Positions 256 to 58,900 of a stretch of 59,021 nucleotides of DNA are shown here, piece by piece. The stretch is from Defluviitaleaceae bacterium (lineage in GTDB: Bacteria > Bacillota > Clostridia > Lachnospirales > WQUN01), in NCBI GenBank assembly GCA_009786975.1, contig WRGX01000219.1, positions 1 through 59,021 of the forward strand, written 5' to 3'. The position numbers and the translations under genes are program-made. Below the pieces are notes generated by a model that had not been told where the DNA came from, did no database searches, and saw nothing but the letters and a program-made list of their open reading frames with translations. How positions within the stretch are numbered: the stretch's first letter is position 1; every line of letters begins with the position of its first letter.

Positions 256-261
256 GTACGT

Positions 262-1151: not shown

Positions 1152-1171
1152 ATACATAATTCCTCCTTCGG

Positions 1172-13102: not shown

Positions 13103-13303
13103 TTCGAAATACCACCCTTCTAAAATTTGAACTCATGTTCGGAAGGATTTTTGGAAACAAAAATGTTTCCAAACACCCTATGCTACATCTATATTACAGG
13201 GCAAATTTTTTTTTCGCAAGTGATTTTTGAAAAAAATATTCTTTACCCGATATTGAATCGGGCGGCTGTTATTTGGGGAGGAGGAGAGGTAAAAATCGCA
13301 ACG

Positions 13304-13393
13304 AAAAAGCGCGCCAAGCGCGCATTGGACACCGGGGACATGTGTCGGAGTCGGCGCATTCCCTCGAAGCCGGGAGCAATTTCCTAGCCCACG
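13304..13393 (+). repeat. R90 repeat copy, forward orientation, in a divergent intergenic region
   Basis: AAAAAGCGCGCCAAGCGCGC head (palindrome 13309-13323), then ACCGGGGACATGTGTCGG and CTCGAAGCCGGGAGCAATTTCC. Confidence 0.9.
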
Positions 13394-13437
13394 AAAAAAA
13401 TGAGTCGGCGAGTGTCACTCGCCGACTCATTTTTTTC
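13394..13437. repeat. P31 palindrome copy (terminator-like hairpin) with no gene to terminate
   Basis: A7-ATGAGTCGGCGAGTG-T-CACTCGCCGACTCAT-T7, with the perfect 15-bp arms at 13400-13430. It lies between the divergently transcribed giant gene and the SLH gene. Confidence 0.8.
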
Positions 13438-13548
13438 GTTGCGATTTTTTGGCAAAATCCGGCGATATTCGTCCGGTAAATTCTCTTTGCTTTTTTTCAA
13501 ACTGTAATGTATAATCACTCTGTAAAATTCAAAAGGGGGCTACTTATA

Positions 13549-19493: not shown

Positions 19494-20750
19494 ATGGCGA
19501 AAGAAACAAAAAAATCGTTTGCATCACTGCCGAAACCCATTGACCTGACAGCACCGGATGCGCCCGAGGGGGCGAAAAGAGGACGGCGAAATGTGCCTGA
19601 ATTTGATGCGGTGCCTGTTGGTATGCCGCGGGAAAATGCGGAAACGAGGCGGATTCCGCCGCCTCCGCCGCCGCCGCTCAGGCCGGGCGATTTTCCGAAA
19701 AAACGCAGACCGTCGAAATCCGCGCCTCCGCCGCGCCTGCGTCCGCGCCGCAAAAATCGACTGATTCAAAGGCTGATTGGTTTTCGTATTAATCCGTTGA
19801 TTTTAAGCGTTGTCGGGTGGAGCGTCGCGGGGATTGCGATAATTGCGTTTTCGGTTTGGTTTATACGGGGATTGCTTGTTGATAATGCGTACGCAGTGTT
19901 TTTGGACGGAGAGCATGTTGGCTATATTGCGATATTCGAAGGCTTGACTTCCGAGGATTTTCACAACGAGGCGGTGCTTAGTTTAGAGGCGATACACAGG
20001 AACGTGCGCGTGCGCGTGGACCAGCGCGTTACCATTGAACGCACGCGAACCGCCGCCCGAAACCGTGAGGCGCGCGGCGATATTATCGCGCGGATAAACC
20101 ACCATGGTTTTACATTTACGATTGCGGCGCACGCGATTTATGTGAACGGCGTGCAGGAGGCTCTTTTAAGCACGCAATCCGATTTGAATCACGTTGAATT
20201 TATGCTTCAGGAGCATTGGCGGAACGAGCACACGGTTTCGGCGGAGTTTGTCGGCAACTGGGAGGTTCGGACGATGTATGTCTGCCCCGATGAAACGGAG
20301 TTTGATACGCCCGATTCCGCATATTTTCGGCTCGACCGCTCGACGATGCAACTTGCCGATTACACCGTTGTAAGCGGCGATACTTTGGACCGAATTGCGG
20401 TGCATTTCGGCACAACAACCACTCGAATTATGGAAGATAATAACATGCAAACGGCAAATATTTGGCCCGGCGACACGCTTCTTATTTACACACAAATGCC
20501 GCTGCTTTCCGTGCGCACGTTTGACGAAATTCACGACGATGAAGCAATTGAAGCACCCATCGAAAATCGCTACAATGTCGACATGCCGCTCGGCACACGA
20601 ACCGTAATACAGGACGGAATGGCCGGCCTCGCGCGCGTTACCGAGCGCATTACCCGCATAAACGGCGTGGAACAATCCCGCGAAATACTGGAAGCGGAAG
20701 TGGTGGTCGAGCCGATTCCCGACATAGTTGAATATGGAGTCGGCGAGTGA
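19494..20750 (+). CDS. membrane-anchored LysM and G5 domain protein with proline-rich N-terminus
   Basis: PPPPPPLRPG tract and TM ILSVVGWSVAGIAIIAFSVWFI. LysM: YTVVSGDTLDRIAVHFGTTTTRIMEDNN..IWPGDTLLIY. G5-like C-terminus: TRTVIQDGMAGLARVTERITRINGVEQSREILEAEVVVEPIPDIVEYG. Confidence 0.8.
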   Translation: MAKETKKSFASLPKPIDLTAPDAPEGAKRGRRNVPEFDAVPVGMPRENAETRRIPPPPPPPLRPGDFPKKRRPSKSAPPPRLRPRRKNRLIQRLIGFRINPLILSVVGWSVAGIAIIAFSVWFIRGLLVDNAYAVFLDGEHVGYIAIFEGLTSEDFHNEAVLSLEAIHRNVRVRVDQRVTIERTRTAARNREARGDIIARINHHGFTFTIAAHAIYVNGVQEALLSTQSDLNHVEFMLQEHWRNEHTVSAEFVGNWEVRTMYVCPDETEFDTPDSAYFRLDRSTMQLADYTVVSGDTLDRIAVHFGTTTTRIMEDNNMQTANIWPGDTLLIYTQMPLLSVRTFDEIHDDEAIEAPIENRYNVDMPLGTRTVIQDGMAGLARVTERITRINGVEQSREILEAEVVVEPIPDIVEYGVGE

Positions 20751-20763
20751 CACTCGCCGACTC
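20737..20763. repeat. P31 palindrome copy overlapping the stop codon of the LysM/G5 gene
   Basis: GAGTCGGCGAGTG-A-CACTCGCCGACTC. The last codons GVGE and the TGA stop are encoded by the 5' arm and loop. The flanking T-tract is weak (AATTTTA). Confidence 0.7.
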
Positions 20764-29319: not shown

Positions 29320-29455
29320 AAAAATCCCTCTTTTCGTAAATTTTGCACGTTTTTGTTTAATTTTATCAAATCTTCACGCCATGTCAAGCGAAAATGTTTT
29401 TTAAGTATCCATGCCTTCGGGGACCCCAATATCTCGCCAAGCGGTTGAATCCTTC

Positions 29456-29482
29456 TCTCGAATCCGGGAGCAATTTCTCCCT
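29456..29482 (+). repeat. R90 tail fragment
   Basis: CTCTCGAATCCGGGAGCAATTTCTCC matches the CTCGAAGCCGGGAGCAATTTCC tail of the 13304 copy. It lies on the opposite side of the P31 hairpin from the full copy. Confidence 0.4.
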
Positions 29483-29497
29483 CTTAAGTATGTACAC

Positions 29498-29537
29498 AAA
29501 AAAGAGTCGGCGAGTGACACTCGCCGACTCTTTTTTT
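29498..29537. terminator. P31 palindrome acting as the atp operon terminator
   Basis: A6-GAGTCGGCGAGTG-A-CACTCGCCGACTC-T7. On the minus strand it follows atpC and one R90 copy. Confidence 0.8.
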
Positions 29538-29626
29538 ATGGACCGGTAAATGGCTCCCGGATTCGAGAGAACGTGCCGACGCCGACACATGTCCCCGGTG
29601 CCCAATGCGCGCTTGGCGCGCTTTTT
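29538..29626 (-). repeat. R90 repeat copy in the atp operon 3' UTR
   Basis: CTCCCGGATTCGAGAGAACG...ACACATGTCCCCGGTGCCCAAT, with GCGCGCTTGGCGCGC at 29607-29621. It lies 32 nt downstream of the atpC stop. Confidence 0.9.
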
Positions 29627-29657
29627 CAGTCAGTTTTCCTCCGCCGCTCATTCGTTC

Positions 29658-30092
29658 CTACTTCTCCTCGCTTTTCGCAACCTCAAGCTGCACCTGCATA
29701 CGGTGAATATCCTCGCGATATTTATGCTTTTCGTCCAAATCCGCAGTCCCATCCAAAAGCCGCCGAAGTTCCGACATTTCTTCCGAAATTTTCTGCGTAT
29801 CAATTTCATCCGGCCGAAACGCTGCGTCCGACAAAATCGTTACAACATCGTCACCCGCGTGCGCCACGCCGCCGAGAATCGCCATATGCGTCTCGCTGTC
29901 CTCGTCAAAAATGCGCAAAACACCCGTTCCGAGAACCATCGAAACAGGCATACGCCCCGGTAAAATGCCCAAGTCACCCGTAGTACAGCGCATAATCGCC
30001 ATATCAACGGATTTTTCAAACTTATACGGGCTTTTATCCGTCGCCATTGTCGGCGCGATTACCCGCAACTCAATTTTTTTTTCATCTGCCAT
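29658..30092 (-). CDS. atpC: F1 ATP synthase epsilon subunit
   Basis: SD GGAGGG upstream of ATG 30092. MADEKKIELRVIAPT..DLGILPGRMPVSMVL..ILGGVAHAGDDVVTIL. Confidence 0.9.
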   Translation of the reverse strand: MADEKKIELRVIAPTMATDKSPYKFEKSVDMAIMRCTTGDLGILPGRMPVSMVLGTGVLRIFDEDSETHMAILGGVAHAGDDVVTILSDAAFRPDEIDTQKISEEMSELRRLLDGTADLDEKHKYREDIHRMQVQLEVAKSEEK

Positions 30093-30172: not shown

Positions 30173-31609
<1,437 letters not shown>

Positions 31610-31642
31610 TTATTTCCTGCTTGTCAAACCAAAGCGGTGTCT

Positions 31643-31737
31643 TTTTTTATGGGCCAGGAAACTGCTCCCGGCTTCGAGGGAATGTGCCGATTTCGACACA
31701 TGTCCCCGGTGTCCAATGCGCGCTTGGCGCGCTTTTT
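31643..31737 (-). repeat. R90 repeat copy inside the atp operon (atpG-atpD spacer)
   Basis: GGAAACTGCTCCCGGCTTCGAGGGAATG...ACACATGTCCCCGGTGTCCAAT, with GCGCGCTTGGCGCGC at 31718-31732. No P31 or other strong terminator lies next to it. Confidence 0.9.
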
Positions 31738-31856
31738 ATTTAAACTCGCCCCAATTCTCGCTCAAAAGTGCCGATTTGTTCTCAAAATCAATTTGATAGC
31801 GTATTGCGTGGTGATCTTTTATAAGCATTCCGTCGGTTAGGCGAATAGACGTCCTC

Positions 31857-37272: not shown

Positions 37273-37503
37273 TCAGAACTTTTTGGCGATATCAATCATC
37301 GCCTTAAAGGCCGCCATACAGCCCAACAGAGAAAGCACAATCGTAAGCCAGGGGCTTATGCCCAAAAGCCCGTCCAAAAAACGCCCGAGCAAAACCCCGC
37401 CAAGCACGCAAATCGCTACCGTTAAGCCGATATGCGTCATAACGCCCATCGCGCGGATAATATTTTTTCTATCCTGCTTGGAAAATTTATTATGTTTCTC
37501 CAT
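37273..37503 (-). CDS. atpZ: AtpZ/AtpI family small membrane protein
   Basis: 76 aa with two TM segments, MGVMTHIGLTVAICVLGGVLLGRFLD..PWLTIVLSLLGCMAAF. This is typical of the ATPase_gene1 family and of the first gene of atp operons. Confidence 0.7.
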   Translation of the reverse strand: MEKHNKFSKQDRKNIIRAMGVMTHIGLTVAICVLGGVLLGRFLDGLLGISPWLTIVLSLLGCMAAFKAMIDIAKKF

Positions 37504-37569
37504 TTATCTATAATATCTCAACAAAAAAAAATGTCAATCATTTTCGATTGCCATTTTTTATTATTTTGC

Positions 37570-37609
37570 AAAAAAGAGTCGGCGAGTGACACTCGCCGAC
37601 TCTTTTTTT
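37570..37609. terminator. P31 palindrome terminator separating the ABC gene from the atp operon
   Basis: A6-GAGTCGGCGAGTG-A-CACTCGCCGACTC-T7. Confidence 0.8.
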
Positions 37610-37875
37610 ACGGACGAGGAAACTGCCCCCGGCTTCGAGAGAACGCGTCGCCGCCGACACATGTCCCCGGTGCCCAATGCGCGCTTGGCGCGCTTTTTTA
37701 TGGGCCGGGAAACTGCCCCCGCCTTCGAGAGAACGCGTCGCCGCCTACACATGCCCCCGGTGCCCAATGCGCGCTTGGCGCGCTTTTTTATGGGCCGGGA
37801 AATTGCTTCCGGCTTCGAGGGAACGCGTCGCCGCCGACACATGCCCCCGGTGCCCATTGCGCGCTTGGCGCGCTT
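37610..37875 (-). repeat. R90 tandem array, 3 units, exact 90-bp period
   Basis: Head palindromes GCGCGCTTGGCGCGC start at 37679, 37769 and 37859. The array begins 8 nt after the ABC gene stop (37884) on the minus strand and ends at the P31 hairpin. Confidence 0.95.
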
Positions 37876-37883
37876 TTCATACG

Positions 37884-39656
37884 TTACGGGCGGGTTTCCA
37901 CCAACGAAAAATACTCCCCGCGAAGCTCCAAAAGTTCCTCGTGTGTCCCGCGCTCCGCGACTTTTCCGTGGTCAATCACCATAATCAAATCCGCGTGTTT
38001 AATCGTAGAAAGCCGATGCGCGATTATAAAGGAAGTGCGGCCTTGCAAAAGGCGGTCGAGGCCTTTTTGCAGGGCTTGCTCGGTGCGTGTGTCGATGTTT
38101 GCGGTGGCTTCGTCTAAGATTAAAATTCGAGGGTCGGCCAAAAGCGCGCGCGCGAAGGAAATCAGTTGCCGCTGACCGACGGAAAGCCGCGTACCGCGCT
38201 CGTTCACCTCGGTTTTGTAGCCCTTTTCGGTCTCCATTATGAATTCATGCGCGCAAACCGCTTTTGCCGCCGCGATTACCTCGTCGTCACTGGCGTCGAG
38301 GCGGCTGTAGCGGATGTTTTCCATGATTGTTCCCGAAAAAAGAAAGCTGTCCTGAAGCATTATGCCCATTTGTCGGCGCAACGAATACAGCGTCGCGTCG
38401 CCGATATCGAAGCCATCGATAAAAATTTGCCCTTTTTCAAGCTCGTAAAATCGCGAAAGCAGGTTCACAACCGTCGTTTTCCCCGCGCCCGTCGGCCCTA
38501 CAAGTGCAATCGTGCTTCCTGCTTCACAGGAAAAATTCACATTGTCCAAGACGGGCTGGTTTTTTTCGTATGAAAAACTTACATTTTTGAACTCGACACG
38601 CCCCTCGATTTCGGGCATATCGCACGCGCCGGGTTTATCCGCGACCAGAACCGGCTCGTCGAGGGTTTCAAAAATTAATTCGAGATAGCTCATGTTTGTG
38701 ACAATCGAATTGTAAAAAATCGCGATATTGTTAATCGGCGTCCAAAATCGATGAATGTACATGACAAACGCGACAAGAACGCCCACTGTAAGCGCGTTAT
38801 CAGCAATCATCGAAACCGCAACAACATATAAAAACGAAACCGCAAGCGTGCTGATATTTTCGATAGTGGGCCGCAACAAAAAGACCATCGCGATACCCTT
38901 CATCCAAGTTTTTTGTACGCTGTACGAAACATCGGCGAAAATCGCTTCATTTTCCGCTTCGCGCGAAAACGCCTGCGTAATTTTCACGCCCGCGATGCTT
39001 TCGTGAATATACGCGTTAAGATTCGACTGTTTCGCGCTGATTAACTGCCACGCCCGCCGATTTTTCGTGCGAATAATAAAAATCGCGCCAAAAAGAAAGG
39101 GCATCCCCGCCATTGCAACAAGCGTGAGCTGCGTGTCAATCGTCAGCATAATTACAACGATAATGCCAAGCGAAAGCATGTCTGTAATCACGTTTAAAAG
39201 CCCGTTCGACAGCATTTCGCTTAAGGAATTTATGTAATTAACAAGCCGCACAAGAATTTTCCCGTGGGGCCGCGAATCAAAAAAACTGAACGGCAAAAGC
39301 TGGATATGTTTAAACAAATCCAGCCGCAAGTCTCGAATTACGCCTTGCCCGACCTTAGCCATCGCCGCGATACGATATCGCATAAAAAATATGTTCAAAA
39401 AAATAGTAGCCAGCATGATTGCCGAAAGAATCAGCACCTGCGCCACATTTCCGGTCGGAATCGCCTCGTCCATAACAATCATCGTAAGGTACGGTGCCAA
39501 AAGCCCAAGCCCGCTCGAGGTAATCGTAAACGCAAAAGTAAGCCCGAAAACGCGCCGATAGGGACGAATATATTTCCCAAGCCGAAACAAATGCCCAAAC
39601 TTAAACACATTTTTTTGGTCGAGAACCTCGTCCTCGCGAAAAGTATTTCGCGCCAC
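37884..39656 (-). CDS. ABC exporter, fused permease/ATPase (type I exporter, probably homodimeric)
   Basis: Walker A GPTGAGKTT, signature LSVGQRQLISFARAL, Walker B ILILDEATANID. The start is reassigned to GTG 39656 (SD AAGGA 8 nt upstream), because the longer ORF to 39782 runs antisense through tRNA-Leu and has no in-frame ATG before the TM region. Confidence 0.85.
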   Translation of the reverse strand: MARNTFREDEVLDQKNVFKFGHLFRLGKYIRPYRRVFGLTFAFTITSSGLGLLAPYLTMIVMDEAIPTGNVAQVLILSAIMLATIFLNIFFMRYRIAAMAKVGQGVIRDLRLDLFKHIQLLPFSFFDSRPHGKILVRLVNYINSLSEMLSNGLLNVITDMLSLGIIVVIMLTIDTQLTLVAMAGMPFLFGAIFIIRTKNRRAWQLISAKQSNLNAYIHESIAGVKITQAFSREAENEAIFADVSYSVQKTWMKGIAMVFLLRPTIENISTLAVSFLYVVAVSMIADNALTVGVLVAFVMYIHRFWTPINNIAIFYNSIVTNMSYLELIFETLDEPVLVADKPGACDMPEIEGRVEFKNVSFSYEKNQPVLDNVNFSCEAGSTIALVGPTGAGKTTVVNLLSRFYELEKGQIFIDGFDIGDATLYSLRRQMGIMLQDSFLFSGTIMENIRYSRLDASDDEVIAAAKAVCAHEFIMETEKGYKTEVNERGTRLSVGQRQLISFARALLADPRILILDEATANIDTRTEQALQKGLDRLLQGRTSFIIAHRLSTIKHADLIMVIDHGKVAERGTHEELLELRGEYFSLVETRP

Positions 39657-39705
39657 AGTTTCACATCCTTGAATTTTTCTGTTATAATCCAATAATAGCA
39701 CAAAT

Positions 39706-39787
39706 GCGGATGTGGTGGAATTGGCAGACACGCGAGATTTAGGTTCTCGTGCCGTAAGGTGTGCAGGTTCAAGTCCTGTCATCCGCA
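39706..39787 (+). tRNA. tRNA-Leu (anticodon UAG)
   Basis: Cloverleaf read by eye. Acceptor GCGGATG/CATCCGC plus discriminator A. Anticodon stem CGAGA/TCTCG with loop TTTAGGT. Long variable arm. T-arm GCAGG-TTCAAGT-CCTGT. 82 nt, with no encoded CCA. An extended -10 TGTTATAAT lies at 39680-39688. Confidence 0.9.
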
Positions 39788-40695: not shown

Positions 40696-42591
40696 TTATG
40701 CGCTCTCCTCAAACTGACTGCGATACAATTTTTCATAAACGCCGCCTGCGGCAAGAAGCCCGTCATGCGTACCTTGTTCGGCAATATCGCCGTCCCGCAT
40801 TACTAGGATTAAATCCGCGCTTCGAATCGTCGAAAGGCGATGCGCGATAATAAACGATGTGCGGCCTTGCATCAAATTGTCCATTGCGCGCTGGATTTGA
40901 ATCTCTGTGCGCGTGTCGACATTGCTTGTTGCTTCGTCGAGAATTAGAATGTCGGGGTTTGCCAAAATTGTTCGCGCGATGGTTAATAGCTGTTTTTGTC
41001 CGGCGGAAATATTGTCGGCTTCTTCATTGATTTGCATCCCGTATCCGTCGGGAAGCACGCGAATAAAGTGATGCGCCTGCGCCGCTCGTGCGGCGTTTTT
41101 TACGTCCTCGTCGCTTGCGTCGAGGCGTCCGTATCGGATATTTTCCGCAATTGTGCCGCTGAAAAGCCATGTATCTTGCAAAACCATGCCAAAATGCCGC
41201 CGCAATTCGTCGCGTTCGTATTCCGTAATATTTTTTCCGTCAACAAAAATCCCGCCCGACGCAACATCGTAAAACCGCATAAGCAGCTTGACAATCGTGG
41301 TTTTCCCCGCGCCGGTATGCCCGACAATCGCAATTTTCTGCCCCGGCTTAACCTCCGCCGTAAAATTTTTTATAACAGGCGTGTCCGGCTCATACCCAAA
41401 GCAGACGTTCTTAAACTCCACACGCCCAACGAAAGTTTTTTTGAGAAGGGTTTTTGGTTCCGGGGGCACGTGTAAATCCTTGCGCGTGCTCTCGAAGCCG
41501 GATGCTGTTTGCGTTGCTGCTTGTGTTGCTGATTGCGTTGAAAAAATTTCTCCCCCTAGGTCTTCTTCTTCCTCGCCCAAAAAATCAAAGACTCGCTCCG
41601 CCGCCGCCGCGGTTTGTTGGAAAACTGACGCGACTCCGGCGAGCTGGGCGATTGGGTGCCCGAGCTGGCGCGTGTACTGGATGAAGGCTTGAATTCCGCC
41701 GATTGTCATTGCGCCGTTAAGGGTCAGCGCGCCGCCGATTACGACGATTGCTACATACCCGATGTTACTAATAAATCCGACGATTGGCATCATCATGCCG
41801 GAGAAAAAATTTGCGCGCCAAGAGGCGTTATATAAGGCTTTGTTGTGCTCGTCAAAAGCCTCGACGGATTTTTTTTCGCCGTTGAACGCCTTGACGATGG
41901 CGTGCGCCGTGAACATTTCCTCGATGTGTCCGTTGAGTTTTCCCAGGTCTGCTTGTTGCGCCTTGAAATATTTTTGCGATTTTTGCACGACGAAGGCCGT
42001 GCAAGCCGCCGAAATCGGCAGGGTAATCAGGGCGACAAGCGTCAAAATCGGGCTGATTGTAAGCATCATTATAATCGTTCCGATGATGTGAACCGCGCTC
42101 ATTAACGCCTGGGAAATTCCCGAGCCAAGCGTGTTTGCCAAGGTATCGACGTCGTTTGATATGCGCGAAAGCACGTCTCCGTGCGGGTTTTTATCAAAAT
42201 ATTTCAGCGGCAAGCGATGAATTTTATCGCTTAATTCAACACGCAAGCGATACATAACACGCATGGCTACGCCCGCCATAATGTAGCCCTGTGCGTAGTT
42301 GAAAATAATATTCAGCGAGTGAAGCACGAGCATAATCAACAAAATTTGGCCGATTCGCGAAAAATCTATGCCGCCGACGCCCTCGCCCATGCGTATCAGC
42401 CCGCTGAAAATTTCGTCGGTCGCTTCGCCCAAAATTCGCGGCGCAAGCACCGCCATAATCGTCGAAACCACCATGAAAATCGTCGTAAGCGTGATGACAA
42501 ACATTTCGCCGCCGAGGTACGCCAAAAGTCGCCGAATCGCCCCGCGAAAATTTTTCGGCTTGTCTTCTTTGTGGGGCCCGTGTCGCCTCAT
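40696..42591 (-). CDS. ABC exporter, fused permease/ATPase (heterodimer partner 2)
   Basis: Walker A GHTGAGKTT, signature ISAGQKQLLTIARTI, Walker B ILILDEATSNVD. ATG 42591 overlaps the upstream gene stop as ATGA. The TMD-NBD linker is about 30 aa longer than in the paralog at 37884. Confidence 0.9.
   Translation of the reverse strand: MRRHGPHKEDKPKNFRGAIRRLLAYLGGEMFVITLTTIFMVVSTIMAVLAPRILGEATDEIFSGLIRMGEGVGGIDFSRIGQILLIMLVLHSLNIIFNYAQGYIMAGVAMRVMYRLRVELSDKIHRLPLKYFDKNPHGDVLSRISNDVDTLANTLGSGISQALMSAVHIIGTIIMMLTISPILTLVALITLPISAACTAFVVQKSQKYFKAQQADLGKLNGHIEEMFTAHAIVKAFNGEKKSVEAFDEHNKALYNASWRANFFSGMMMPIVGFISNIGYVAIVVIGGALTLNGAMTIGGIQAFIQYTRQLGHPIAQLAGVASVFQQTAAAAERVFDFLGEEEEDLGGEIFSTQSATQAATQTASGFESTRKDLHVPPEPKTLLKKTFVGRVEFKNVCFGYEPDTPVIKNFTAEVKPGQKIAIVGHTGAGKTTIVKLLMRFYDVASGGIFVDGKNITEYERDELRRHFGMVLQDTWLFSGTIAENIRYGRLDASDEDVKNAARAAQAHHFIRVLPDGYGMQINEEADNISAGQKQLLTIARTILANPDILILDEATSNVDTRTEIQIQRAMDNLMQGRTSFIIAHRLSTIRSADLILVMRDGDIAEQGTHDGLLAAGGVYEKLYRSQFEESA
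41430..41512 (+). repeat. degenerate R90 copy embedded in frame in the ABC linker
   Basis: 41457-41512 reads GGTTCCGGGGGCACGTGTAAATCCTTGCGCGTGCTCTCGAAGCCGGATGCTGTTTGCG. This aligns with the R90 core CACCGGGGGCATGTGTCGGCGGCGACGCATTCCCTCGAAGCCGGACGCAGTTTCCG. The head part (41430-41456) has decayed. Confidence 0.55.
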
Positions 42592-44468
42592 GAGACGGCA
42601 CCCTGACTTGATGCAATTTCGCGGTATTCCGCGCAATTTTTCAAAAGTTCTGCGTGAGTCCCGCGCCCGACGATTTTTCCTTCATCTAATACAAGGATTT
42701 GCTCGGCGTTTATAATCGTGCCGACGCGTTGCGCAATCACGATGATTGCGGCATTTGCGGCATGTTCGCGCAGGGCTTTTCGAAGTGCGGCATCGGTTTG
42801 GAAATCCAGCGCGGAAAACGCGTCGTCGAAGATTAAAATTTCCGGCTCTTTTGCAAGCGCGCGCGCAATCGAAAGCCGCTGGCGTTGTCCGCCGGAAATA
42901 TTTGTGCCGCCCTGCGAAATTTCCGCCGCGAATCCGCCCTCTTTTTCGGCAATAAAATCCGCCGCTTGGGCAACGCGCGCAATTTTTTCAAGGAAGGAAG
43001 GATTGTCTCCGGCTTTGTCTCCGGCTTCGAGAGAACGCGTGGCTTGCGACACATCTTCGCGGTGCCCACCGTGCGCTTGGCGCACTCCGTACTTTATGTT
43101 TGACTCAATCGTCCCCGAAAGAAGCTGCCCTTTTTGCGGCACGTAGCCGATTTTTTCGCGAAGTTCCGCCTGCCGCATCCGCCGAATATCCACCCCGTCA
43201 ACAAGAATCCGCCCGCCGCTTACATCGTAAAACCGAAGCAAAAGCTGCGCAATAGTGGACTTTCCGGCACCGGTTGCCCCAATAATCGCCGTAGTTTCGC
43301 CAGCTTTCGCATCAAACGAAATGCCCTCAACAGCCGCCGCCTCTGCGTTTGGATAGCTGAACGAAACCTGTTCAAAAACAATAGTCGGGGTCAAGGGGGC
43401 TTTGCTCCCTTGCGGGGGATTGGGGGCTGGTCGTCCGCCTAAAGGCGGACTGCTCGCCCATGCGACCGGGGCTGCGCCCCCAAGGTCTTCATCATCGACA
43501 ATACTAAACTCCGTATCAAGCACCTCGGAAATTCTCTTAGCCGAAACCTGCGCTCGCGGCACCATTACAAGCACCATCGAGAACATCATGAACGCGAAAA
43601 GGACTTGCATTGAGTATTGGAAAAAGGCCATCATGTCGCCGATTGGGAGGTCTTCGGAAAGGGTGCCGACGGAACGCGCGCCGAAAAAAATTATTGCGAC
43701 TTGCGTAAAACCCATGATGAACGTGATTGCGGGACCGATGAAAGCCATGGTTCTTCCGATGAAAAGACCGAGGTCGCGCAGGTCGGTGTTGGACTTGTCA
43801 AAACGGGATTTTTCGTGCGCCTGTGCGGCAAAAGCGCGGATGACGGGCAGGCCGTGCAGGATTTCGCGGGCGACGCGGTTGAGCCCGTCGGTCTTTTCTT
43901 GCACAAGAGCGAATTTGGGCATAACAATCGACACAAGAAGTATCACGATGCCGAATAAAATTATCACGGCAAGCCCCAAAATCCAGCTAAGCCCGGGGGC
44001 GCGGGTGAGTGCCATAAAAATTCCGCCGACAGCCAAAATAGGCGCGTAAAGAAGCATGCGCGCCGAAATGTTTGCGACATTTTGGACCTGTGTAACGTCG
44101 TTTGTGCAGCGTGTGATAAGCGACGCCGACGAAAATTTATCGAATTCCGTCTGCGAAAAGTTTTCGACTTTTATGAACAAATCGCGCCGCAAATCACGCG
44201 CCGCGCCCGCCGCAACTTTGGGCGAAATGTATGAAACAATAATCGAAAATGTACCCGCCAAAAGCGCGAAAAAAAGCATTGCGGCACCCGTTTGCAAGAT
44301 AAATTCCATGCGCGACTCGCCCGTTTGGTAGGCATAAACAATGCCGTCGTCAACGATTGCGGACATCAAGGTCGGCAAATAAAGCTCCGCAAGCGACTGC
44401 ACAAAAAGCAGCACAAGTATAAGAATTATTCCGCCCCAAAAGGGCTTTAAATATTTCGCCAGTGACAT
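42588..44468 (-). CDS. ABC exporter, fused permease/ATPase (heterodimer partner 1) carrying in-frame repeat insertions
   Basis: Walker A GATGAGKST, signature ISGGQRQRLSIARAL, Walker B ILIFDDAFSALD. It has an extra ~25 aa between NIKYG and the AADFI helix, and an extra ~24 aa in the TMD-NBD linker, relative to the two paralogs in this window. Confidence 0.9.
   Translation of the reverse strand: MSLAKYLKPFWGGIILILVLLFVQSLAELYLPTLMSAIVDDGIVYAYQTGESRMEFILQTGAAMLFFALLAGTFSIIVSYISPKVAAGAARDLRRDLFIKVENFSQTEFDKFSSASLITRCTNDVTQVQNVANISARMLLYAPILAVGGIFMALTRAPGLSWILGLAVIILFGIVILLVSIVMPKFALVQEKTDGLNRVAREILHGLPVIRAFAAQAHEKSRFDKSNTDLRDLGLFIGRTMAFIGPAITFIMGFTQVAIIFFGARSVGTLSEDLPIGDMMAFFQYSMQVLFAFMMFSMVLVMVPRAQVSAKRISEVLDTEFSIVDDEDLGGAAPVAWASSPPLGGRPAPNPPQGSKAPLTPTIVFEQVSFSYPNAEAAAVEGISFDAKAGETTAIIGATGAGKSTIAQLLLRFYDVSGGRILVDGVDIRRMRQAELREKIGYVPQKGQLLSGTIESNIKYGVRQAHGGHREDVSQATRSLEAGDKAGDNPSFLEKIARVAQAADFIAEKEGGFAAEISQGGTNISGGQRQRLSIARALAKEPEILIFDDAFSALDFQTDAALRKALREHAANAAIIVIAQRVGTIINAEQILVLDEGKIVGRGTHAELLKNCAEYREIASSQGAVS
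43003..43086 (-). repeat. R90 copy inserted in frame in the nucleotide-binding domain of the ABC gene
   Basis: TCTCCGGCTTCGAGAGAACGCGTGGCTTGCGACACATCTTCGCGGTGCCCACC, plus the head GTGCGCTTGGCGCAC (43071-43085). A 12-bp internal duplication GTCTCCGGCTTT/GTCTCCGGCTTC is present. The segment translates as VRQAHGGHREDVSQATRSLEAGDKAG. Confidence 0.85.
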
Positions 44469-44560: not shown

Positions 44561-44600
44561 AAAAAAAAATGAGTCGGCGAGTGTCACTCGCCGACTCATT
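44561..44600. repeat. P31 palindrome copy in a divergent promoter region
   Basis: A9-ATGAGTCGGCGAGTG-T-CACTCGCCGACTCAT (44569-44599). It lies between the ABC start (44468, minus) and the htrA start (44691, plus), so no gene ends here. Confidence 0.75.
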
Positions 44601-48894: not shown

Positions 48895-48936
48895 CAAAAA
48901 TGAGTCGGCGAGTGTCACTCGCCGACTCATTTTTTC
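48895..48936. terminator. P31 palindrome terminator after the ABC ATPase pair
   Basis: A5-ATGAGTCGGCGAGTG-T-CACTCGCCGACTCAT-T5, with arms at 48900-48930. Confidence 0.8.
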
Positions 48937-49048: not shown

Positions 49049-50137
49049 ATGGAACAGATTAAGCTGGGCGTTGTCGGCCTCGGGCTTGCGTGGGAGCGGC
49101 TTCACGCGCCCGCGCTTGCAAAACTGCGGGACAGATTTGAAATTGCTGCGGTGTGTGACAGGGATTTGGCAAAGGCACAAAACGTTGTGCAATTCATGGG
49201 GCATTCGCCCGAAAACGCTTTTGATGATTTGCAAAAAATGCTTGAGCGGGACGACATCGAGGCGATTTTGTCGCTTGTTCCCATCAGCGAAAACTTTGAA
49301 ACCGCCGCAACCGTCATGCGAAGCGGCAAGCATCTTTTGGCGGAAAAACCCTTCGCGGCCTCGCCCGACGCGGCACGGAGGCTTATTCAAATGTGCGATT
49401 TGTCAAGCTCGACGGTTATGGTTGCGGAAAATGTGCGTTACGAGGAACAAAACGTGCTGATAAAAGAGCTCCTCACAAGCGGCGAAATCGGCGAGCCGAT
49501 TTTTTTCATCGATACGCACATCATCGACTACGCGAGGGAGTCGGAGCGCGGCGGTTTCGGTCAAACAAATTGGCGGCAACATCCGCGATATGAAGGCGGC
49601 GTGATTCTTGATTCCGGCGTGCATCATATGGCGAGGTTGCGGTATCTTTTCGGCGATATCGACAATGTGTCCGCGCACGGGCATCCGCCCATGCACGATT
49701 TCGCGCCGTATTCCTGCATAAACGCGCTGTTAAAATTTGAAAATATCACGGGACATTACACATTTTTCACGGCAGGAAGGGAAACACAAGCACCGCTCGT
49801 TGGGTTGCGAATTTACGGCACAAAAGGCGAAATTTTCCTCGAGGATTCAAACTGTGGGTTCGTAAACATTTCATATACCGACGAACGCCCCTCCAACGCC
49901 GTTAACTACATGCCCGGCCTCGGCTACCAGCGCGAGCTTGAAAACTTCCACGCCGCAATTCGCATGGGCGCGAAAATCGAATCCGGCCCCGAAAAGGCCG
50001 TCGGTGACATCGAAGCTGTTTTCGCTCTGTTGGAATCCGCCCGTGCAAACGAATCCTCCCCCTCGGATGCGTCCGAAAGACTGACGTCGGCCTACATTTT
50101 TCCAAAAGTCACAATGTATCCGGGCGCAAGAGTTTAG
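49049..50137 (+). CDS. Gfo/Idh/MocA family oxidoreductase
   Basis: Rossmann N-terminus IKLGVVGLGLAWERLHAPAL and the EKP motif LLAEKPFA. SD AAAGGAG. Confidence 0.85.
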   Translation: MEQIKLGVVGLGLAWERLHAPALAKLRDRFEIAAVCDRDLAKAQNVVQFMGHSPENAFDDLQKMLERDDIEAILSLVPISENFETAATVMRSGKHLLAEKPFAASPDAARRLIQMCDLSSSTVMVAENVRYEEQNVLIKELLTSGEIGEPIFFIDTHIIDYARESERGGFGQTNWRQHPRYEGGVILDSGVHHMARLRYLFGDIDNVSAHGHPPMHDFAPYSCINALLKFENITGHYTFFTAGRETQAPLVGLRIYGTKGEIFLEDSNCGFVNISYTDERPSNAVNYMPGLGYQRELENFHAAIRMGAKIESGPEKAVGDIEAVFALLESARANESSPSDASERLTSAYIFPKVTMYPGARV

Positions 50138-50491
50138 GCGCGCCAAGCGCGCGGTGGGCACCGGGGACATGTGTCGGCGGCGACGCATTCCCTCGAAGCC
50201 GGGAACAGTTTCTTGGTCCACAAAAAAGCGCGCCAAGCGCGCGGTGGGCACCGGGGACACGTGTCGGCGGCGACGCATTCCCTCGAAGCCGGACGCAGTT
50301 TCCGAGCCCATAAAAAAGCGCGCCAAGCGCGCGGTGGGCACCGGGGGCATGTGTCGGCGGCGACGCATTCCCTCGAAGCCGGACGCAGTTTCCGAGCCCA
50401 TAAAAAAGCGCGCCAAGCGCGCGGTGGGCACCGGGGACACGTGTTGGCGGCGACGCATTCCCTCGAAGCCGGATGCAGTTTACCGGTCCAC
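50138..50491 (+). repeat. R90 tandem array, 4 units, exact 90-bp period
   Basis: Head palindromes GCGCGCCAAGCGCGC start at 50138, 50228, 50318 and 50408. Units 2 and 3 differ at 2 of 90 positions. The array starts on the nucleotide after the TAG stop of the upstream gene. Confidence 0.97.
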
Positions 50492-50533
50492 AAAAAAAAC
50501 AACCCGGATGTCAGGTTTCCGGGTTGTTTTTTT
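50492..50533. terminator. bidirectional intrinsic terminator between the oxidoreductase gene/R90 array and glgD
   Basis: A8-AACAACCCGGA (50498-50508) pairs with TCCGGGTTGTT (50518-50528), then T7. Confidence 0.8.
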
Positions 50534-50578
50534 GGAGATGATGAGGGCGAATTTCAATTTTTGAGAGTGGAAAAAGTA

Positions 50579-51697
50579 TCAAGTGACTACTTCTTGCCCT
50601 TTAGGTATAACAATCGGGGCTTCCGGGGTGCCGATTATTCGTGCGCCGGGGTGCAGGGTTACGTCTTTGTCGATGATGGCGTGTTCGACGACGCAGTCGT
50701 TTCCGACAACTACTCCCTCCATTAAAATGGAGTTGGTTATATGAGTTCGGTCGCCTGCGAAAACACGGCGGAAAATTACGGAACGGTTTGCGTAGCCATT
50801 TAAAATTGCGCCGCTTCCGATTATGCAGTTTACGACATGCGCGTCGTTGTTAAATTTTGCGGGCGGTTCGTCCTTTGGCTTGGTCTTGATGTAGGGGTGT
50901 TGCAACATGAAATCGTTTCGAATTTCGCGGCGCAAAAAGTCCATGTTGCAGTCGAAATACGAGTGGATACTGCCCAAATTGCGCCAGTATCCGTCAAAGC
51001 GGTAGCCGTAAATGCGAAGCCGCTTGCGATAGCGCGAAAATAAATCCAAAACCAGGTCGTAACGCCCTTCGGAAACGATTGTCTCGATAAGTTCGATTAA
51101 AAGCGGGCGCGAGATTACATACACGCCGATTGACGCCAAATCCGACTGCGGCTCGAGCGGCTTTTGCTCGAGGTCGGTCAGTCGCTCGGCTTGGTCAAGC
51201 TCCATTACGCCGTACTGGCGAATATCGTCGCTGTCGGGAACTTGGCGATACGCAATTGTAATGTCGGCGGCTTTTTGTTCGTGATACTCAATCAGCTTGT
51301 TAAAATCCATTTTGTACACACAGTCGCCGGAGGAAATTACGACGTACGGCTCGTTGCTTCGTTTCAAATACGTGAGGTTTTGATAAATGCAGTCGGCGGT
51401 TCCGCGAAACCAAACCGAGTTTTCGCCGCTTTGATACGGCGAAAAAACGAACATGCCACCTTGTTTTGTGCCCAAATCCCACCATTTCGGGGCATTTAGA
51501 TGGTCGTGCAACGAGCGCGAATTGTATTGGGTTATAATCGCGACTTTTTTTATTCCGGAATTTGTCATACTGCTTAGCGGGAAGTCGATTGCGCGATAAC
51601 AGCTTCCCACCGGAAGCGCGGACGCGGCGCGACTGTGCGTAAGCGCGCCAAGTCGTTCGTTTCTTCCGCCTGCCAAAATTATTCCGACCGCTCTCAT
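50579..51697 (-). CDS. glgD: glucose-1-phosphate adenylyltransferase subunit GlgD
   Basis: The N-terminus [44 protein letters not shown] lacks the catalytic GGxGxRL consensus, as GlgD does. Its start overlaps the glgC stop (ATGA). Confidence 0.9.
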
Positions 51698-54657: not shown

Positions 54658-55869
54658 ATGCATGTAAGCGGCATAATCGCCGAATTCAACCCGCTTCATC
54701 GCGGGCATATCGCCCATATAAATGAAACGCGACAAAAATTCGGCGGAAAAATCGTTGTTGCGATGAGCGGGAATTTCGTCCAGCGCGGCGAACCCGCGAT
54801 TTTTGACAAACGAAAACGCACCAAAACGGCTCTTTTGGCGGGCGCGGACATTGTGCTTGAAATTCCTGTGCCGTATGTGATTGCGGGCGCGGATTATTTT
54901 GCGCGAGGAAGTGTCGGGCTTTTGGCGGCGACGGGCGTGGTTTCGACGCTTAGTTTTGGCAGTGAGTGCGGGGATATTGAGGCGATTCGCCAAACGGCGG
55001 ACGTGCTTGCGAACGCGCGCCAAATGCGCGTGCCGATGGCGACACATGCTCCCGAAAACGATTTCGGTTTGTTTGAAGAAACATTGCGCGCGCATCTCGA
55101 CGCGGGCATGTCCTTCGCGGCGGCGCGCGGCGCGGCACTTTCGGCGTGCTTGCCCGATGCGCCGGAAGGCTTGTTCACCAAGCCGAATAACTGCCTCGCA
55201 ATCGAATATTGCAAAGCACTTCTCCTTCTCGGAAGCCCGATGGAAGTTTTCACAACACACCGTGCGTCCGGCGGCCCGTCCGCGACAAAAATTCGCGCGC
55301 GCCAAGCACGCAATGAGCACCGAAGACGCATATCGCACATCGACGACTTCTCAAAAATCTTCCGCCATCTCCTGCACACGCGTGATTTCGACCTCGGCGA
55401 AGGTTTACAAAACCGTTTCCGCAAATTTTCCGCCGAATTCACCCAAATTTCCGAAATAATCGACGCGGTAAAAACCAAACGCTACACGCGCACGCGCCTG
55501 TCCCGCGCGGTTTTGGGCGTAATTTTGGGCATCTCTTCGGCAGATATGGATTTTTTTGATTCGGCGAAAAACTGCACCCGTCTTCGGGGGAACCCGTCGC
55601 ATCCAGCACATGACTTCGGTGCCCAATACATACGCGTTTTGGGCTTTCGCAAAGAAAGCGCGGATTTGCTTGGCGCGATAACAAAAAAGGCCGCGCTGCC
55701 CGTCATAACGCACGGCGCGGCCATGGATGAAATTTTACGCGGCGACAAAGGCGAAGCCGCCGCCGCCATGCTTGCGAAGGACTTCGAAGCAACCGATATT
55801 TACCGAATCGCAACAAACACACCCTGCGCCTTCCGAGGCGAACGCGGCGAAGGGATTATTGTAGTGTAG
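54658..55869 (+). CDS. tmcAL: tRNA(Met) cytidine acetate ligase (TmcAL/YlbM, UPF0348 nucleotidyltransferase)
   Basis: GIIAEFNPLHRGHIAHINETR (HxGH motif), AMSGNFVQRGEPAIFDKRKR and ADIVLEIP. SD GAGGTG upstream of ATG 54658. Confidence 0.8.
   Translation: MHVSGIIAEFNPLHRGHIAHINETRQKFGGKIVVAMSGNFVQRGEPAIFDKRKRTKTALLAGADIVLEIPVPYVIAGADYFARGSVGLLAATGVVSTLSFGSECGDIEAIRQTADVLANARQMRVPMATHAPENDFGLFEETLRAHLDAGMSFAAARGAALSACLPDAPEGLFTKPNNCLAIEYCKALLLLGSPMEVFTTHRASGGPSATKIRARQARNEHRRRISHIDDFSKIFRHLLHTRDFDLGEGLQNRFRKFSAEFTQISEIIDAVKTKRYTRTRLSRAVLGVILGISSADMDFFDSAKNCTRLRGNPSHPAHDFGAQYIRVLGFRKESADLLGAITKKAALPVITHGAAMDEILRGDKGEAAAAMLAKDFEATDIYRIATNTPCAFRGERGEGIIVV
55566..55650 (-). repeat. degenerate R90 copy embedded in frame in tmcAL
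   Basis: GAAAAACTGCACCCGTCTTCGGGGGAACCCGTCGCATCCAGCACATGACTTCGGTGCCCAAT aligns with GGAAACTGCCCCCGGCTTCGAGAGAACGCGTCGCCGCCGACACATGTCCCCGGTGCCCAAT at roughly 70% identity by eye. The head palindrome is lost. Confidence 0.5.
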
Positions 55870-56896: not shown

Positions 56897-58762
56897 ATGA
56901 CAAATTTGAACACCGGTTTGATTTACACCGACGTAAGCGGATGCATCGATTGCAATAAATGCATCCACGAATGCCCCGTTTTAAAGGCAAATGTTGCAGT
57001 ACCCGATGGTTCCGGCTCGTACAATATATGCGTGGACCAAAACGAGTGCATTTTATGCGGAACATGCAACGACACCTGCACGCACAATGTCCGACATTTC
57101 CGCGACGATTGTGACAGCTTCTTCGACGACCTAAAACGCGGGAAAGCAATTTCGGTTATTGTAGCTCCCGCGTTTTATATTAACTATCCAAGCGAGTACA
57201 AGCGCGTTTTCGGATATTTGAAAAGCATGGGCGTGAAAAATTTTTATTCCGTAAGCTACGGCGCGGATATCACGGCATGGGCGTACTTAAATCACATCAC
57301 CCAAACGGGCAAAATGGGCAATATCGCCCAGCCCTGCCCCTGTATAACAAATTACATCGAAAAACATCAGCCCGAGCTTATCCCAAGCCTAATCCCCGTA
57401 CACTCGCCCATGATGTGTATGGCAATATATTTGAAGCGATACAAAAATGTAAGCGACAGCCTGATGTTCCTGAGTCCGTGCATCGGCAAAAAAGTCGAAA
57501 TCGACTCGAAGCGCGGGTTGGGGATGATTGACTACAACGTTACGTTTGCCACCCTGATGGAGCGCGTCAAAAACAGCGGAGTAAACCTAAACGCACAGCC
57601 CGAGGTCGACGATGTCATCGACTACGGCATGGGCGCGCTTTTTTCAAAGCCGGGCGGCCTGCGCGAAAACGTGGAATTTTACGTGGGGACCGACGCCCTT
57701 GTCGTGCAAGTCGAGGGCGAACACAAGGCGTATTCCTATCTGAAAAATTTTGCGAAACGCGCGGGGTCAAGCTCGCGGTCGATGCCGATGCTTATCGACA
57801 TATTGAACTGCGAAGCGGGTTGCAACCAAGGCACAGCAACCGAGTTTCGCCACTCCACCGACGATTCCATCGCCTTCGAAGCACACCAAATGCGCGCAAA
57901 AAAAGTTAATGGCATGACCGACGCAGAGGGCAATATTTTAACCGACCCCGCCGACCGTCTCGCCCGATTAAACGAAATGTTCGCAGATTTGCGCCTCGAC
58001 GACTTCAAGTGCAACTATGACACAAGCGAGGCACTTCGCACACGCTCAATCGGCGACATGGAAATAAATAAAATTTTTGCGGATATGCTCAAAACCACGC
58101 ACGAGGACAAAACGATTGATTGCAGCGCGTGCGGCTATAAAACCTGCCTTGATTTGGCGCAAGCAATCGCGTACGGCATCAGTTATCCCGAAAAATGCGT
58201 GTACTATGTAAAAGCGAACCTGGACGTACAAATCGAGCATCAAAAAGCCATCGTTGACGGTTTCGCAAACATAAACAATTTGCTCGCCGAGCTTACAAAC
58301 GACAATATAAAAACATCTGAAAGCACAACTTCAATAAACAATCACATCAACGAAGCCGTCGAGCAAGGCGGCGTTATGCGAAAAACCCTCGAGGACATAC
58401 AGGCGGAGTTCGCAAATTTAAACAAAACCTACATGGAAATCGCGACAATCGCGCGGCAAACCAGCTTACTTTCCATAAACGCGGCAATCGAGGCCGCCCG
58501 CGCCGGAAACATGGGTAAAGGCTTTGGCGTCGTTGCGGAAGAAGTCGGCGCGCTTGCAAAAAAAACCATGAGTACCGTAAATGTCAACTCCGAAAACTCC
58601 GAAAACATCTCCAAAGTTTTGAACAAACTAATCGCCGACACAAACTCCCTCATCTCAAAAATCGACAACGTAAACAGCTCCACCGATGAAATCACCGAAA
58701 GCGTAAGCGACATCACCGCAAAAACAGAAAACATTCTCGCGCTTATGGATGAATTGAAATAA
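56897..58762 (+). CDS. soluble [FeFe]-hydrogenase-like (2x[4Fe-4S] plus H-cluster-type domain) protein fused to a methyl-accepting chemotaxis signalling domain
   Basis: Ferredoxin motifs [12 protein letters not shown] and [11 protein letters not shown]. Ordered Cys motifs [14 protein letters not shown] and [14 protein letters not shown] hairpin [44 protein letters not shown]. No TM segment. SD GGGAGGGG. Confidence 0.85.
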
Positions 58763-58770
58763 CTTTTTAC

Positions 58771-58857
58771 AAAAAGCGCGCCAAGCGTGCATTGGGTACC
58801 GGGGACATGTGTCGGCGGCGACGCATTCCCTCGAAGCCGGGAGCAGTTACCCGGCGT
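58771..58857 (+). repeat. R90 repeat copy in the 3' UTR of the hydrogenase-like MCP gene
   Basis: AAAAAGCGCGCCAAGCGTGC (one G-U compatible change), then TACCGGGGACATGTGTCGGCGGCGACGCATTCCCTCGAAGCCGGGAGCAGTTACC. It starts 9 nt after the stop. Confidence 0.9.
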
Positions 58858-58859
58858 AC

Positions 58860-58900
58860 AAAAAAACAATCGTCCGGTATCACCGGACGATTGTTTTTTT
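58860..58900. terminator. bidirectional intrinsic terminator
   Basis: A7-AACAATCGTCCGGT (58865-58878), loop ATC, ACCGGACGATTGTT (58882-58895), then T-run to 58900. Confidence 0.8.

Follow-up and report, generated by a model that had tools for sequence, protein, structure and literature searches.

An in-frame insert derived from the R90 repeat in an ABC exporter gene of uncultured termite-gut Defluviitaleaceae

When a structured repeat that otherwise lies downstream of genes is found in frame inside a conserved transporter gene, two questions arise: how did it get there, and does it do anything for the protein? Both are raised by a 59,021-nucleotide contig of a Defluviitaleaceae bacterium (WRGX01000219.1, assembly GCA_009786975.1; this whole stretch is called the window below), in which a copy of a repeat named R90 lies within the nucleotide-binding domain (NBD) of an ATP-binding cassette (ABC) exporter gene, here called ABC1. 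The repeat, whose structured unit measures 90 nt, is interspersed in the genomes of a clade of uncultured Defluviitaleaceae from termite guts (Clostridia, Lachnospirales). In our judgement the insert in ABC1 is probably a tolerated, near-neutral loop extension that goes back to an old insertion of this repeat, which spreads in 3' untranslated regions (UTRs).

The insert and its host gene

The host gene, its partner and the features of the insert are as follows (window coordinates).

42588 to 44468, minus strand: ABC1, ABC exporter gene, 626 amino acids (Pfam ABC_membrane, E=4.5e-34; ABC_tran, E=6.4e-29)
40696 to 42591, minus strand: ABC2, partner ABC exporter gene (Pfam), with canonical Walker B (LDEATS) and H-loop (IAHR)
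42984 to 43086, minus strand: R90-derived in-frame insert in ABC1 (nhmmer E=1.8e-14, 49 bits, profile positions 9-99)
43071 to 43085, minus strand: retained head hairpin, GTGCGC-CAA-GCGCAC on the coding strand, with one compensated pair (C:G to U:A)
43004 to 43027, minus strand: 12-bp tandem duplication in the R90 tail, AAGCCGGAGACA twice on the coding strand (consensus alignment)

ABC1 encodes a half-transporter with a degenerate nucleotide-binding site, in which FDDAFS lacks the Walker-B glutamate and IAQR replaces the H-loop histidine; its other motifs are GATGAGKST, VPQKGQ and SGGQRQR. The ABC1 stop overlaps the ABC2 start, and in domain content, motifs and pairing the two genes fit a heterodimeric type IV (ABCB-like) exporter with ABC1 as the degenerate-site subunit.

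The homology of the insert to R90 is established by a profile made from 12 full copies (profile length about 101 positions). The original prediction, which had been made from the sequence and placed a near-complete copy in frame at 43003-43086, was essentially right, the profile match covering 42984-43086. The inserted codons are residues 462-491 (42996-43085), read in sense orientation in frame f1 of the repeat; in the helical subdomain they follow NIKYG and precede the FLEKIA helix. The insert peptide, VRQAHGGHREDVSQATRSLEAG, is the f1 reading of R90, as had been claimed, and the 12-bp duplication in the tail and the compensated head hairpin were likewise seen. In a repeat search, the ABC1 copy (43016-43086) was 82% identical over 71 nt to the reference copy (family D2), its identity to the closest copies being 77-80%; an exact 67-mer of it occurs once, with 0 expected in shuffles. 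The frame is kept through the Walker A, Q-loop, signature, Walker B and H-loop regions, so the ABC motifs are intact as reported.

We compared 120 ABC1 orthologs by the number of residues between the invariant YG and AQA, with the following loop lengths.

15 residues: 106 orthologs
12-17 residues: 113 orthologs, including those 106
38 residues: P0001, the window protein
60 residues: P0002
21-70 residues, unrelated inserts: P0022, P0039, P0045, P0067 and P0105

The insert is a derived state at this loop. R90-like sequence is present there in P0001 and P0002 only, and 118 of the 120 orthologs are without it, for which reason an origin of R90 from the ABC gene was rejected. The excess that had been noted over the two paralogs in the window amounts to 23 residues, and it is the same relative to the 106 short orthologs. 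An insertion was confirmed, but not the clean 75-84-nt indel that had been foreseen: the net gain is about 69 nt, and native loop residues were replaced. The unrelated inserts at the NIxYG loop of five further orthologs indicate that this loop is permissive; these inserts may stem from other repeat families in their own genomes.

Origin, constraint and competing explanations

The closest database proteins are annotated as belonging to Defluviitaleaceae metagenome-assembled genomes (MAGs) from termite guts. Three genomes were compared: that of the window organism, Emb289P1bin119 (G_E; WQVC01, GCA_009781765.1; loci L001, L005 and L026) and ERZ27257299 / JGI24703J35330_11747279 (G_N; loci L022-L024). 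P0002 is encoded at L001 of G_E and is 81-84% identical to the window ABC1; its gene matches the R90 profile with E=2e-13 and keeps the canonical head hairpin. This second, homologous insert is thus itself derived from R90, and it comes from a genome that has R90-type arrays. The two carriers share the insertion site, the 5' junction lying at the same nucleotide in both, right after TACGG. Both genic copies also have CA(A/T)GCC in place of GCGGCG, a change absent from the other 42 aligned R90 copies, and both resume at FLEKIA; their tails differ by lineage-specific duplications. Most likely there was one old R90 insertion, which, on this comparison of sequences, would predate the split between the window lineage and Emb289P1bin119.

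The course of events that we consider probable can be outlined as follows. One R90 copy would have landed in the helical subdomain of the degenerate NBD, in the loop that joins NIxYG to the next helix, and would there have taken the place of seven or so native loop residues. Such an insertion need not break the frame, because the unit measures 30 codons and all but one of the six frames are open, and the insert may have survived because the loop tolerates added length. After the split, selection on the downstream ABC motifs would have kept the frame and the stop-free state while the peptide drifted, the tail acquired small duplications and the RNA fold decayed. The insert would have no function of its own in the transporter; we infer its near-neutrality, like its single origin, from the comparisons given here.

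The contrast in selective constraint was measured between the window and G_E by the Nei-Gojobori method (omega, ratio of nonsynonymous to synonymous rates; dS, synonymous rate).

Rest of ABC1, 552 codons: 84% amino-acid identity, omega 0.10, dS 1.09
R90-derived part of the insert, 21 codons: 43% amino-acid identity, omega 0.76

The low omega over 552 codons, together with the intact reading frame, speaks for an ABC1 gene that is under purifying selection and not disrupted. The RNA fold of the ABC1 copy has decayed except for the head hairpin, and the copy folds no better than its shuffles (z=0.0). In the AlphaFold2 model of ABC1 (mean predicted local distance difference test, pLDDT, 76) the insert scores 51-58 and its flanks 81 or above. 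Against solved P-glycoprotein NBDs the insert appears as a gap of 20-21 residues between NIxxG and the helix before the A.A..FI segment, which we take to be a variable region of the ABC helical subdomain. The differences in omega, identity and fold therefore suggest a functional ABC1 in which the insert is a drifting passenger, its frame protected by the downstream motifs.

Several points weigh against a single, neutral insertion. With 83% identity to the window protein, the ABC1 protein of G_N (P0108) roughly equals P0002 (84%) in closeness, but it has no insert, its loop being YGNENAELEKIA. The three proteins are nearly equidistant (84.3, 83.3 and 81.5%), and a three-way tree groups no pair clearly, the shared-derived sites numbering 1, 5 and 2; on a single origin, G_N must therefore have branched off early or have lost the insert later. 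The pairing of the head hairpin has been kept through a double substitution, and the proportion of synonymous differences (pS) is lower in the insert (0.32) than in the rest of ABC1 (0.58), a weak signal from 21 codons; both could reflect residual constraint on the nucleotide sequence or gene conversion. No mobilising machinery (transposase, terminal inverted repeats or a consistent target-site duplication) was found in the loci examined. The insert is presumably translated, and it is probably solvent-exposed, as judged from pLDDT and alignment gaps.

The distribution among the three genomes would also be explained if R90 had entered the same loop, at the same nucleotide, independently in the window lineage and in Emb289P1bin119, this being a preferred or the only tolerated site. 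The triplet phylogeny does not pair the two carriers, and the shared-derived sites slightly favour the window together with G_N; the genic copies are 80% and 84% identical to intergenic R90 and 73% to each other; and the positions that follow the head match the local subfamilies, GGTGGG in the window and AGTGAA/AGTGGA at L001 and L005. Unrelated inserts in the same loop of five other orthologs would also fit a site open to repeated insertion. Nevertheless we think two insertions unlikely, since the junction is identical to the base, three derived nucleotides are held in common (CA. GCC, one of them synonymous), the native loop residues were lost alike up to FLEKIA, and 73% identity between the copies exceeds what separate decays of 20% and 16% would lead one to expect.

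It can be asked whether the insert has been co-opted, the extra 30 residues providing the degenerate NBD with a surface element that is functional or regulatory, for instance by acting as a docking site or by modulating NBD dimerisation. In two lineages it has been kept in frame through a dS of about 1.1, residues 470-484 are predicted to form a helix, and the motif SLEA is conserved in both carriers. The relaxed omega and 43% identity, as opposed to 0.10 and 84% elsewhere in ABC1, argue the other way, as do the unequal lengths (38 and 60 residues), the tails with their lineage-specific duplications, the low model confidence at the insert and the 118 orthologs, including the equally close P0108, that manage without it. 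Co-option is on this evidence very unlikely.

A residual role at the RNA level, in which the ABC1 mRNA would still make use of the head hairpin and of the invariant CTCGAAGCCGG motif, might consist in a translational pause before the signature motif or in a binding or processing site common with R90 in 3' UTRs. The compensated hairpin, the lower pS and the motif CTCGAAGCCG, which is invariant in 31 members and kept in genic copies and relics, are in its favour. However, the genic copy folds no better than shuffles, and one compensated pair among about 14 substitutions has by our estimate a chance of roughly 5-10% and could also be produced by hairpin-templated mutation; the 21 codons give little statistical power, and one antisense relic in the tmcAL gene (55552-55639, below) lacks the motif. 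We regard such a role as highly improbable. That the frame is an assembly accident, or a fortuitous opening in a dead gene, has a practically negligible probability even though the window protein comes from a single contig, given a 626-codon open reading frame (ORF) with all ABC motifs, an omega of 0.10 that includes 130 codons downstream of the insert, an ortholog with a homologous insert that is identical in three independent assemblies, and translational coupling to an intact partner gene.

R90 outside ABC1

R90 is a genuine repeat family, with 12 full and about 10 partial copies found by the nhmmer profile in the 59 kb window, the full ones recovered at E-values of 1e-26 to 1e-31. A repeat search returned families whose members measure 64-130 nt, located at 212-341, 13301-13398, 29497-29626, 31608-31737 and 58768-58865, and tandem units at 37569-37878 (three) and 50130-50497 (four); the period of the tandem arrays is 90 nt. 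The unit of 90 nt equals 30 codons, and five open frames out of six have a P of about 0.03 in shuffles. At least 7 R90 loci came from a genome scan and at least 11 from a metagenome scan; the distribution seen comprises three related genomes and two termite samples.

In sense orientation the R90 consensus folds better than shuffles (z=-4.1), and its multibranch fold is a prediction. The canonical head hairpin is GCGCGC-CAA-GCGCGC, and covariation is seen in it at pair 11-21 (27 GC, 3 AU and 1 GU), which is the neighbour of the pair compensated in ABC1 and not that pair itself; support for the core hairpin is partial. Of the fold, the RNAalifold consensus retains just the head hairpin and a portion of the core hairpin, with one compensated pair. 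The CTCGAAGCCG motif is unchanged in 31 family members, and it is retained in both genic copies (ABC1 and L001) and in the relics in ABC2 and at 46129 and 28297. As variants of the unit we observed a modular form at L005:4111-4380 in G_E, in which a single head hairpin, joined to a TAG stop, precedes four core units of 63 nt and a tail, and copies at L009:4686-4813 and L013:2182-2291 with a nested additional hairpin (GGGTGCGGGCACGTTTCATGTGCC...) 3' of the invariant CTCGAA motif.

The ends of R90, GCGCGCCAAGCGCGC... and ...CCCGGCCCAT(A)n, are not mutually inverted, its hairpins being internal, and terminal inverted repeats were not found in R90. Flanking 8-nt A-rich matches occur at 2 of about 17 loci (13303, ACGAAAAA; 58770, TACAAAAA), the remaining loci having no flanking duplication or just the consensus A-run. 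A classification as a MITE (miniature inverted-repeat transposable element) was rejected because terminal inverted repeats are absent and target-site duplications inconsistent. No transposase-like Pfam match or REP-associated tyrosine transposase (RAYT) was found among the 27 ORFs annotated, out of about 42 long ORFs in the window. No Rfam family matched R90; at gathering thresholds the window yields only a tRNA, and a permissive scan of an R90 array gave chance-level matches (best 22.8 bits against a cut-off of 97). A phage origin was rejected, since the R90 pattern was not found in IMG/VR.

R90 is normally located in sense orientation downstream of genes, as a single copy or in 90-nt tandem arrays, in the window and at 13 further loci from two termite metagenomes. 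The main intergenic copies of the window are listed below.

37602 to 37879, minus strand: intergenic array of three units, beginning 10 nt past the stop of the ABC gene 37884-39782 and followed by the palindromic terminator 37576-37602
50134 to 50498, plus strand: intergenic array of four units, its head abutting the TAG stop of the oxidoreductase gene 49049-50137
13303 to 13399, plus strand: full intergenic R90, followed by the palindromic terminator 13402-13428
29530 to 29628, minus strand: full R90 downstream of atpC; on its other side the terminator palindrome 29504-29530 and a partial inverted copy, 29447-29504
31641 to 31738, minus strand: full R90 between atpG and atpD, in sense orientation within the ATP synthase operon
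58770 to 58867, plus strand: full R90 beginning 13 nt past the stop of the gene 56897-58762

Of 27 R90 arrays, 12 begin no more than 15 nt from the stop of a long upstream ORF in sense orientation, and R90 heads lie at stops far above random placement in 3' regions. The stop can be fused to the head (the slash marks the junction): TTAG/CGCGCC at L005, L013 and L015, GTAG/CGCGCT at 53781 and TAG/GCGCGCC at 50134. Heads fused to a stop or within 1 nt of it were noted at 28242, 46129, 50134 and 53781 in the window and at L005:4111, L013:2182, L015:2152 and L014:149; the stops at these junctions are mostly TAG, often TTAG, and belong to many unrelated genes. Recoding of UAG, with R90 as a hairpin after TAG of the kind of a pyrrolysine insertion sequence (PYLIS), was rejected because the post-stop frame varies among loci and the genes have no internal TAG. 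An integron attC-like site, considered on account of GTTAG at some junctions, was also rejected, the genes being housekeeping genes in both orientations and most junctions unlike GTTRRRY.

Downstream of the arrays there is usually a perfect palindrome, GAGTCGGCGAGTG-N-CACTCGCCGACTC, with 13-nt arms and flanking A and T runs, every base of which is conserved at many genes. Six such palindromes occur in the window, some of them without R90 (13402-13428, 20737-20763, 29504-29530, 37576-37602, 44571-44597 and 48902-48928), and others at L011-L021; none was found in the examined loci of G_E and G_N. The palindrome looks like a second repeat family, and its sequence resembles a putative bidirectional terminator. 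One contig of the same termite sample that is labelled as viral also has it. Convergent genes have one palindrome in common with inverted R90s at both sides, and the antisense strand of the R90 head hairpin with its T-run resembles an intrinsic terminator. By analogy with REP/BIME elements (below), R90 might shield 3' ends, influence termination or act as an insulator towards antisense transcription.

Since TTAG/CGCGCC terminates at least four unrelated genes, we also considered whether R90 is a mobile 3'-end module bounded on its 5' side by a stop codon of its own (T-A(n)-G joined to the head hairpin), a proposal that we find quite unlikely. If it were true, spread would target stop codons or A-runs, for instance by microhomology-mediated or reverse-transcription-like integration; genes would receive from the module a stop, a structured 3' UTR and insulation from antisense transcription; and the in-frame genic copies would be misfires of this targeting at internal A-runs.

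Three ORFs, 50171-50725, 37432-38175 and 29411-29983 (all plus strand), traverse R90 copies or arrays. Long ORFs arise there because most R90 frames are open, 50171-50725 being the open f1 frame of an array. Neither of the two ORFs tested, 50171-50725 and 29411-29983, has a Pfam match, and probably none of the three is a gene. At 39706-39787 on the plus strand, a tRNA gene (54 bits) overlaps the 5' end of the mechanically called ORF 37884-39782, and the true start of this third ABC exporter gene is therefore further downstream.

Beyond ABC1, R90 sequence was located within other genes of the window.

41431 to 41511, plus strand: R90 relic in the linker between the transmembrane domain (TMD) and NBD of ABC2, antisense, frame r1, ASGFESTRKDLHVPPEPKT (nhmmer E=2.1e-6; tblastn r1 E=5.7e-4)
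54658 to 55869, plus strand: tmcAL-type nucleotidyltransferase gene, PF05636 (Pfam E=1.1e-89; PDB 5y0r E=2.2e-38)
55012 to 55075, plus strand: tmcAL relic (a), sense, f1-like, 15-residue insert (nhmmer E=0.002)
55296 to 55352, plus strand: tmcAL relic (b), sense, frame f1, ARQARNEHRRRISH, in a variable region (nhmmer E=8.4e-5)
55552 to 55639, minus strand: tmcAL relic (c), antisense, frame r3, NCTRLRGNPSHPAHDFGAQ, 16-residue insert (nhmmer E=4.2e-14)
246 to 337, minus strand: full R90 over the 3' end of the dockerin/cohesin gene 297-1157, frame f2 (nhmmer E=4.8e-26)

The original prediction named three further genic copies, and they fared differently. The r1 copy given as 41430-41512 was recovered in the ABC2 linker, which is 24-28 residues longer than in 19 orthologs. 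The r3 copy expected at 55566-55650 exists at 55552-55639, but the tmcAL gene holds three relics rather than one. Relics (a) and (c) are unique to the window genome, with clean gaps in 20 of 20 orthologs including those of G_E and G_N, and T. maritima TmcAL has neither insert; relic (b) brings no net gain in length over the closest orthologs. At 297-336, the f2 copy is R90, but it is not an internal insertion: the last 13 codons and the stop of the dockerin/cohesin gene lie within the repeat, which is read into at the C terminus. In G_N, gatA contains an in-frame copy in frame f2 (L024:20333-20410; nhmmer E=1e-9) with a net insert of 17 residues relative to S. aureus GatA (2DF4). The claim of in-frame spread to other genes is thus borne out and widened to tmcAL, ABC2 and the gatA of G_N. 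The gatA copy replaces the conserved GSSTENS-type segment adjoining DEFAM, which is surprising in an essential enzyme. A peptide search for more degenerate relics gave nothing convincing beyond the nhmmer matches.

ABC1 has a second insert, which is not R90.

43386 to 43490, minus strand: insert in the TMD-NBD linker of ABC1, DLGGAAPVAWASSPPLGGRPAPNPPQGSKAPLTPT, about 22 residues, AAPVAWASSPPLGGRPAPNPPQGSKAPL

Its DNA is GC-rich and hairpin-rich and includes GTCCGCC-TAAA-GGCGGAC; the pLDDT there is below 50. It is unique to the window lineage and occurs in no ortholog, and its assignment to another repeat family was rejected, no further copy being present in the window or in the other loci examined. 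Inserts unrelated to it are found in this linker in four orthologs (P0013, P0027, P0036 and P0106). The ORF 1172-13102 (minus strand), of 3976 residues with internal repeats, adjoins the dockerin/cohesin gene 297-1157 (minus strand) and an SLH/CBM_X2 gene at 13507-15558 (plus strand), a cluster that looks like a cellulosome-like surface system.

Relation to known repeats and significance

Small structured repeats within genes have been described before. Rickettsia palindromic elements (RPEs) are structured repeats found between genes and in frame in unrelated genes (Ogata et al. 2000, as summarised in PMC10969869), and in-frame or intragenic copies are documented for RPE, BOX/RUP, BRE, enterobacterial repetitive intergenic consensus (ERIC), QMITE1 and Anabaena MITEs (PMC10969869, PMC3184786). 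R90 resembles RPEs as a structured repeat of many copies, its 90-nt unit being slightly shorter than theirs (roughly 100-150 bp), with open frames in the element, in-frame copies in intact, unrelated housekeeping genes (ABC1, ABC2, the three relics in tmcAL, and gatA at L024), and no associated transposase; its sites may likewise be compatible with the protein fold, the one in ABC1 having low pLDDT between confident flanks and falling at a gap relative to solved NBDs. The two differ in host (Alphaproteobacteria versus termite-gut Clostridia) and appear unrelated in sequence, no Rfam family matching R90. Placement in sense orientation right after stops, 90-nt tandem arrays and the conserved terminator palindrome are not known of RPEs, and most genic R90 copies are partial relics. 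R90 thus behaves like RPEs but is not an RPE.

Within the Bacillota, BOX and RUP of Streptococcus pneumoniae are transcribed with their neighbours, and some copies lie in or are fused to ORFs (Croucher et al. 2011, cited in PMC3184786 and PMC10969869). BOX is modular, boxA-(boxB)n-boxC, which recalls the head, four 63-nt cores and tail at L005. Unlike R90, BOX is not described as abutting stops or as tied to one conserved terminator, and an informal comparison noted no sequence similarity.

The repetitive extragenic palindromes (REPs) and bacterial interspersed mosaic elements (BIMEs) of Enterobacteria and Pseudomonas are, like R90, GC-rich hairpin repeats of 3' UTRs and intercistronic regions, orientation-biased and clustered. 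R90 shows this extragenic placement with orientation bias, and inverted R90 pairs flank a terminator at L018, L021 and 29447-29628 of the window. REP elements reportedly protect mRNA 3' ends and modulate translation when next to a stop codon, and by analogy either role is plausible for R90. In place of doublets of 20-40-nt palindromes accompanied by a RAYT, R90 forms 90-nt multi-hairpin units in direct arrays, and no RAYT was seen in the examined sequence. The GTAG-type 5' tetranucleotide of REPs is absent from most R90 copies, and REPs are extragenic by definition.

BRE (the betaproteobacterial repeat element, known from Bordetella and internal to about nine genes) and intragenic ERIC elements also lie within protein genes or extend the 3' ends of ORFs (Hot et al. 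2011; Delihas 2007; cited in PMC3184786). The dockerin/cohesin gene ends in R90 much as ERIC and BRE extend ORF ends, but these belong to other phyla and other element families. We know of no report for BRE or ERIC in which constraint on an insert was compared with that on its host gene. In the literature searched, no description of in-frame repeats of this kind in Clostridia or Defluviitaleaceae was found. The R90 family, and its occurrence in this taxon, appear to be undescribed, while the phenomenon itself is not new; the novelty suggested by the original prediction was overstated, in-frame small repeats being known well beyond Rickettsia, including BOX/RUP in Bacillota.

The tight juxtaposition of R90 heads with stop codons and a conserved terminator is a regularity of this family. 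By lengthening proteins and creating spurious ORFs over arrays, as at 50171-50725, R90 inserts can mislead gene callers and the placing of domain boundaries in MAGs. The carrier pair provides a rare quantitative contrast, an insert with an omega of about 0.8 inside a gene of about 0.1, which bears on the origin of new loop sequence. Essential housekeeping genes (gatA, tmcAL and the ABC exporter gene) can carry R90 passengers for long. The RPE-type phenomenon is thereby widened to free-living or gut Clostridia, that is, to genomes that are neither reduced nor intracellular, in which repeats colonise permissive loops.

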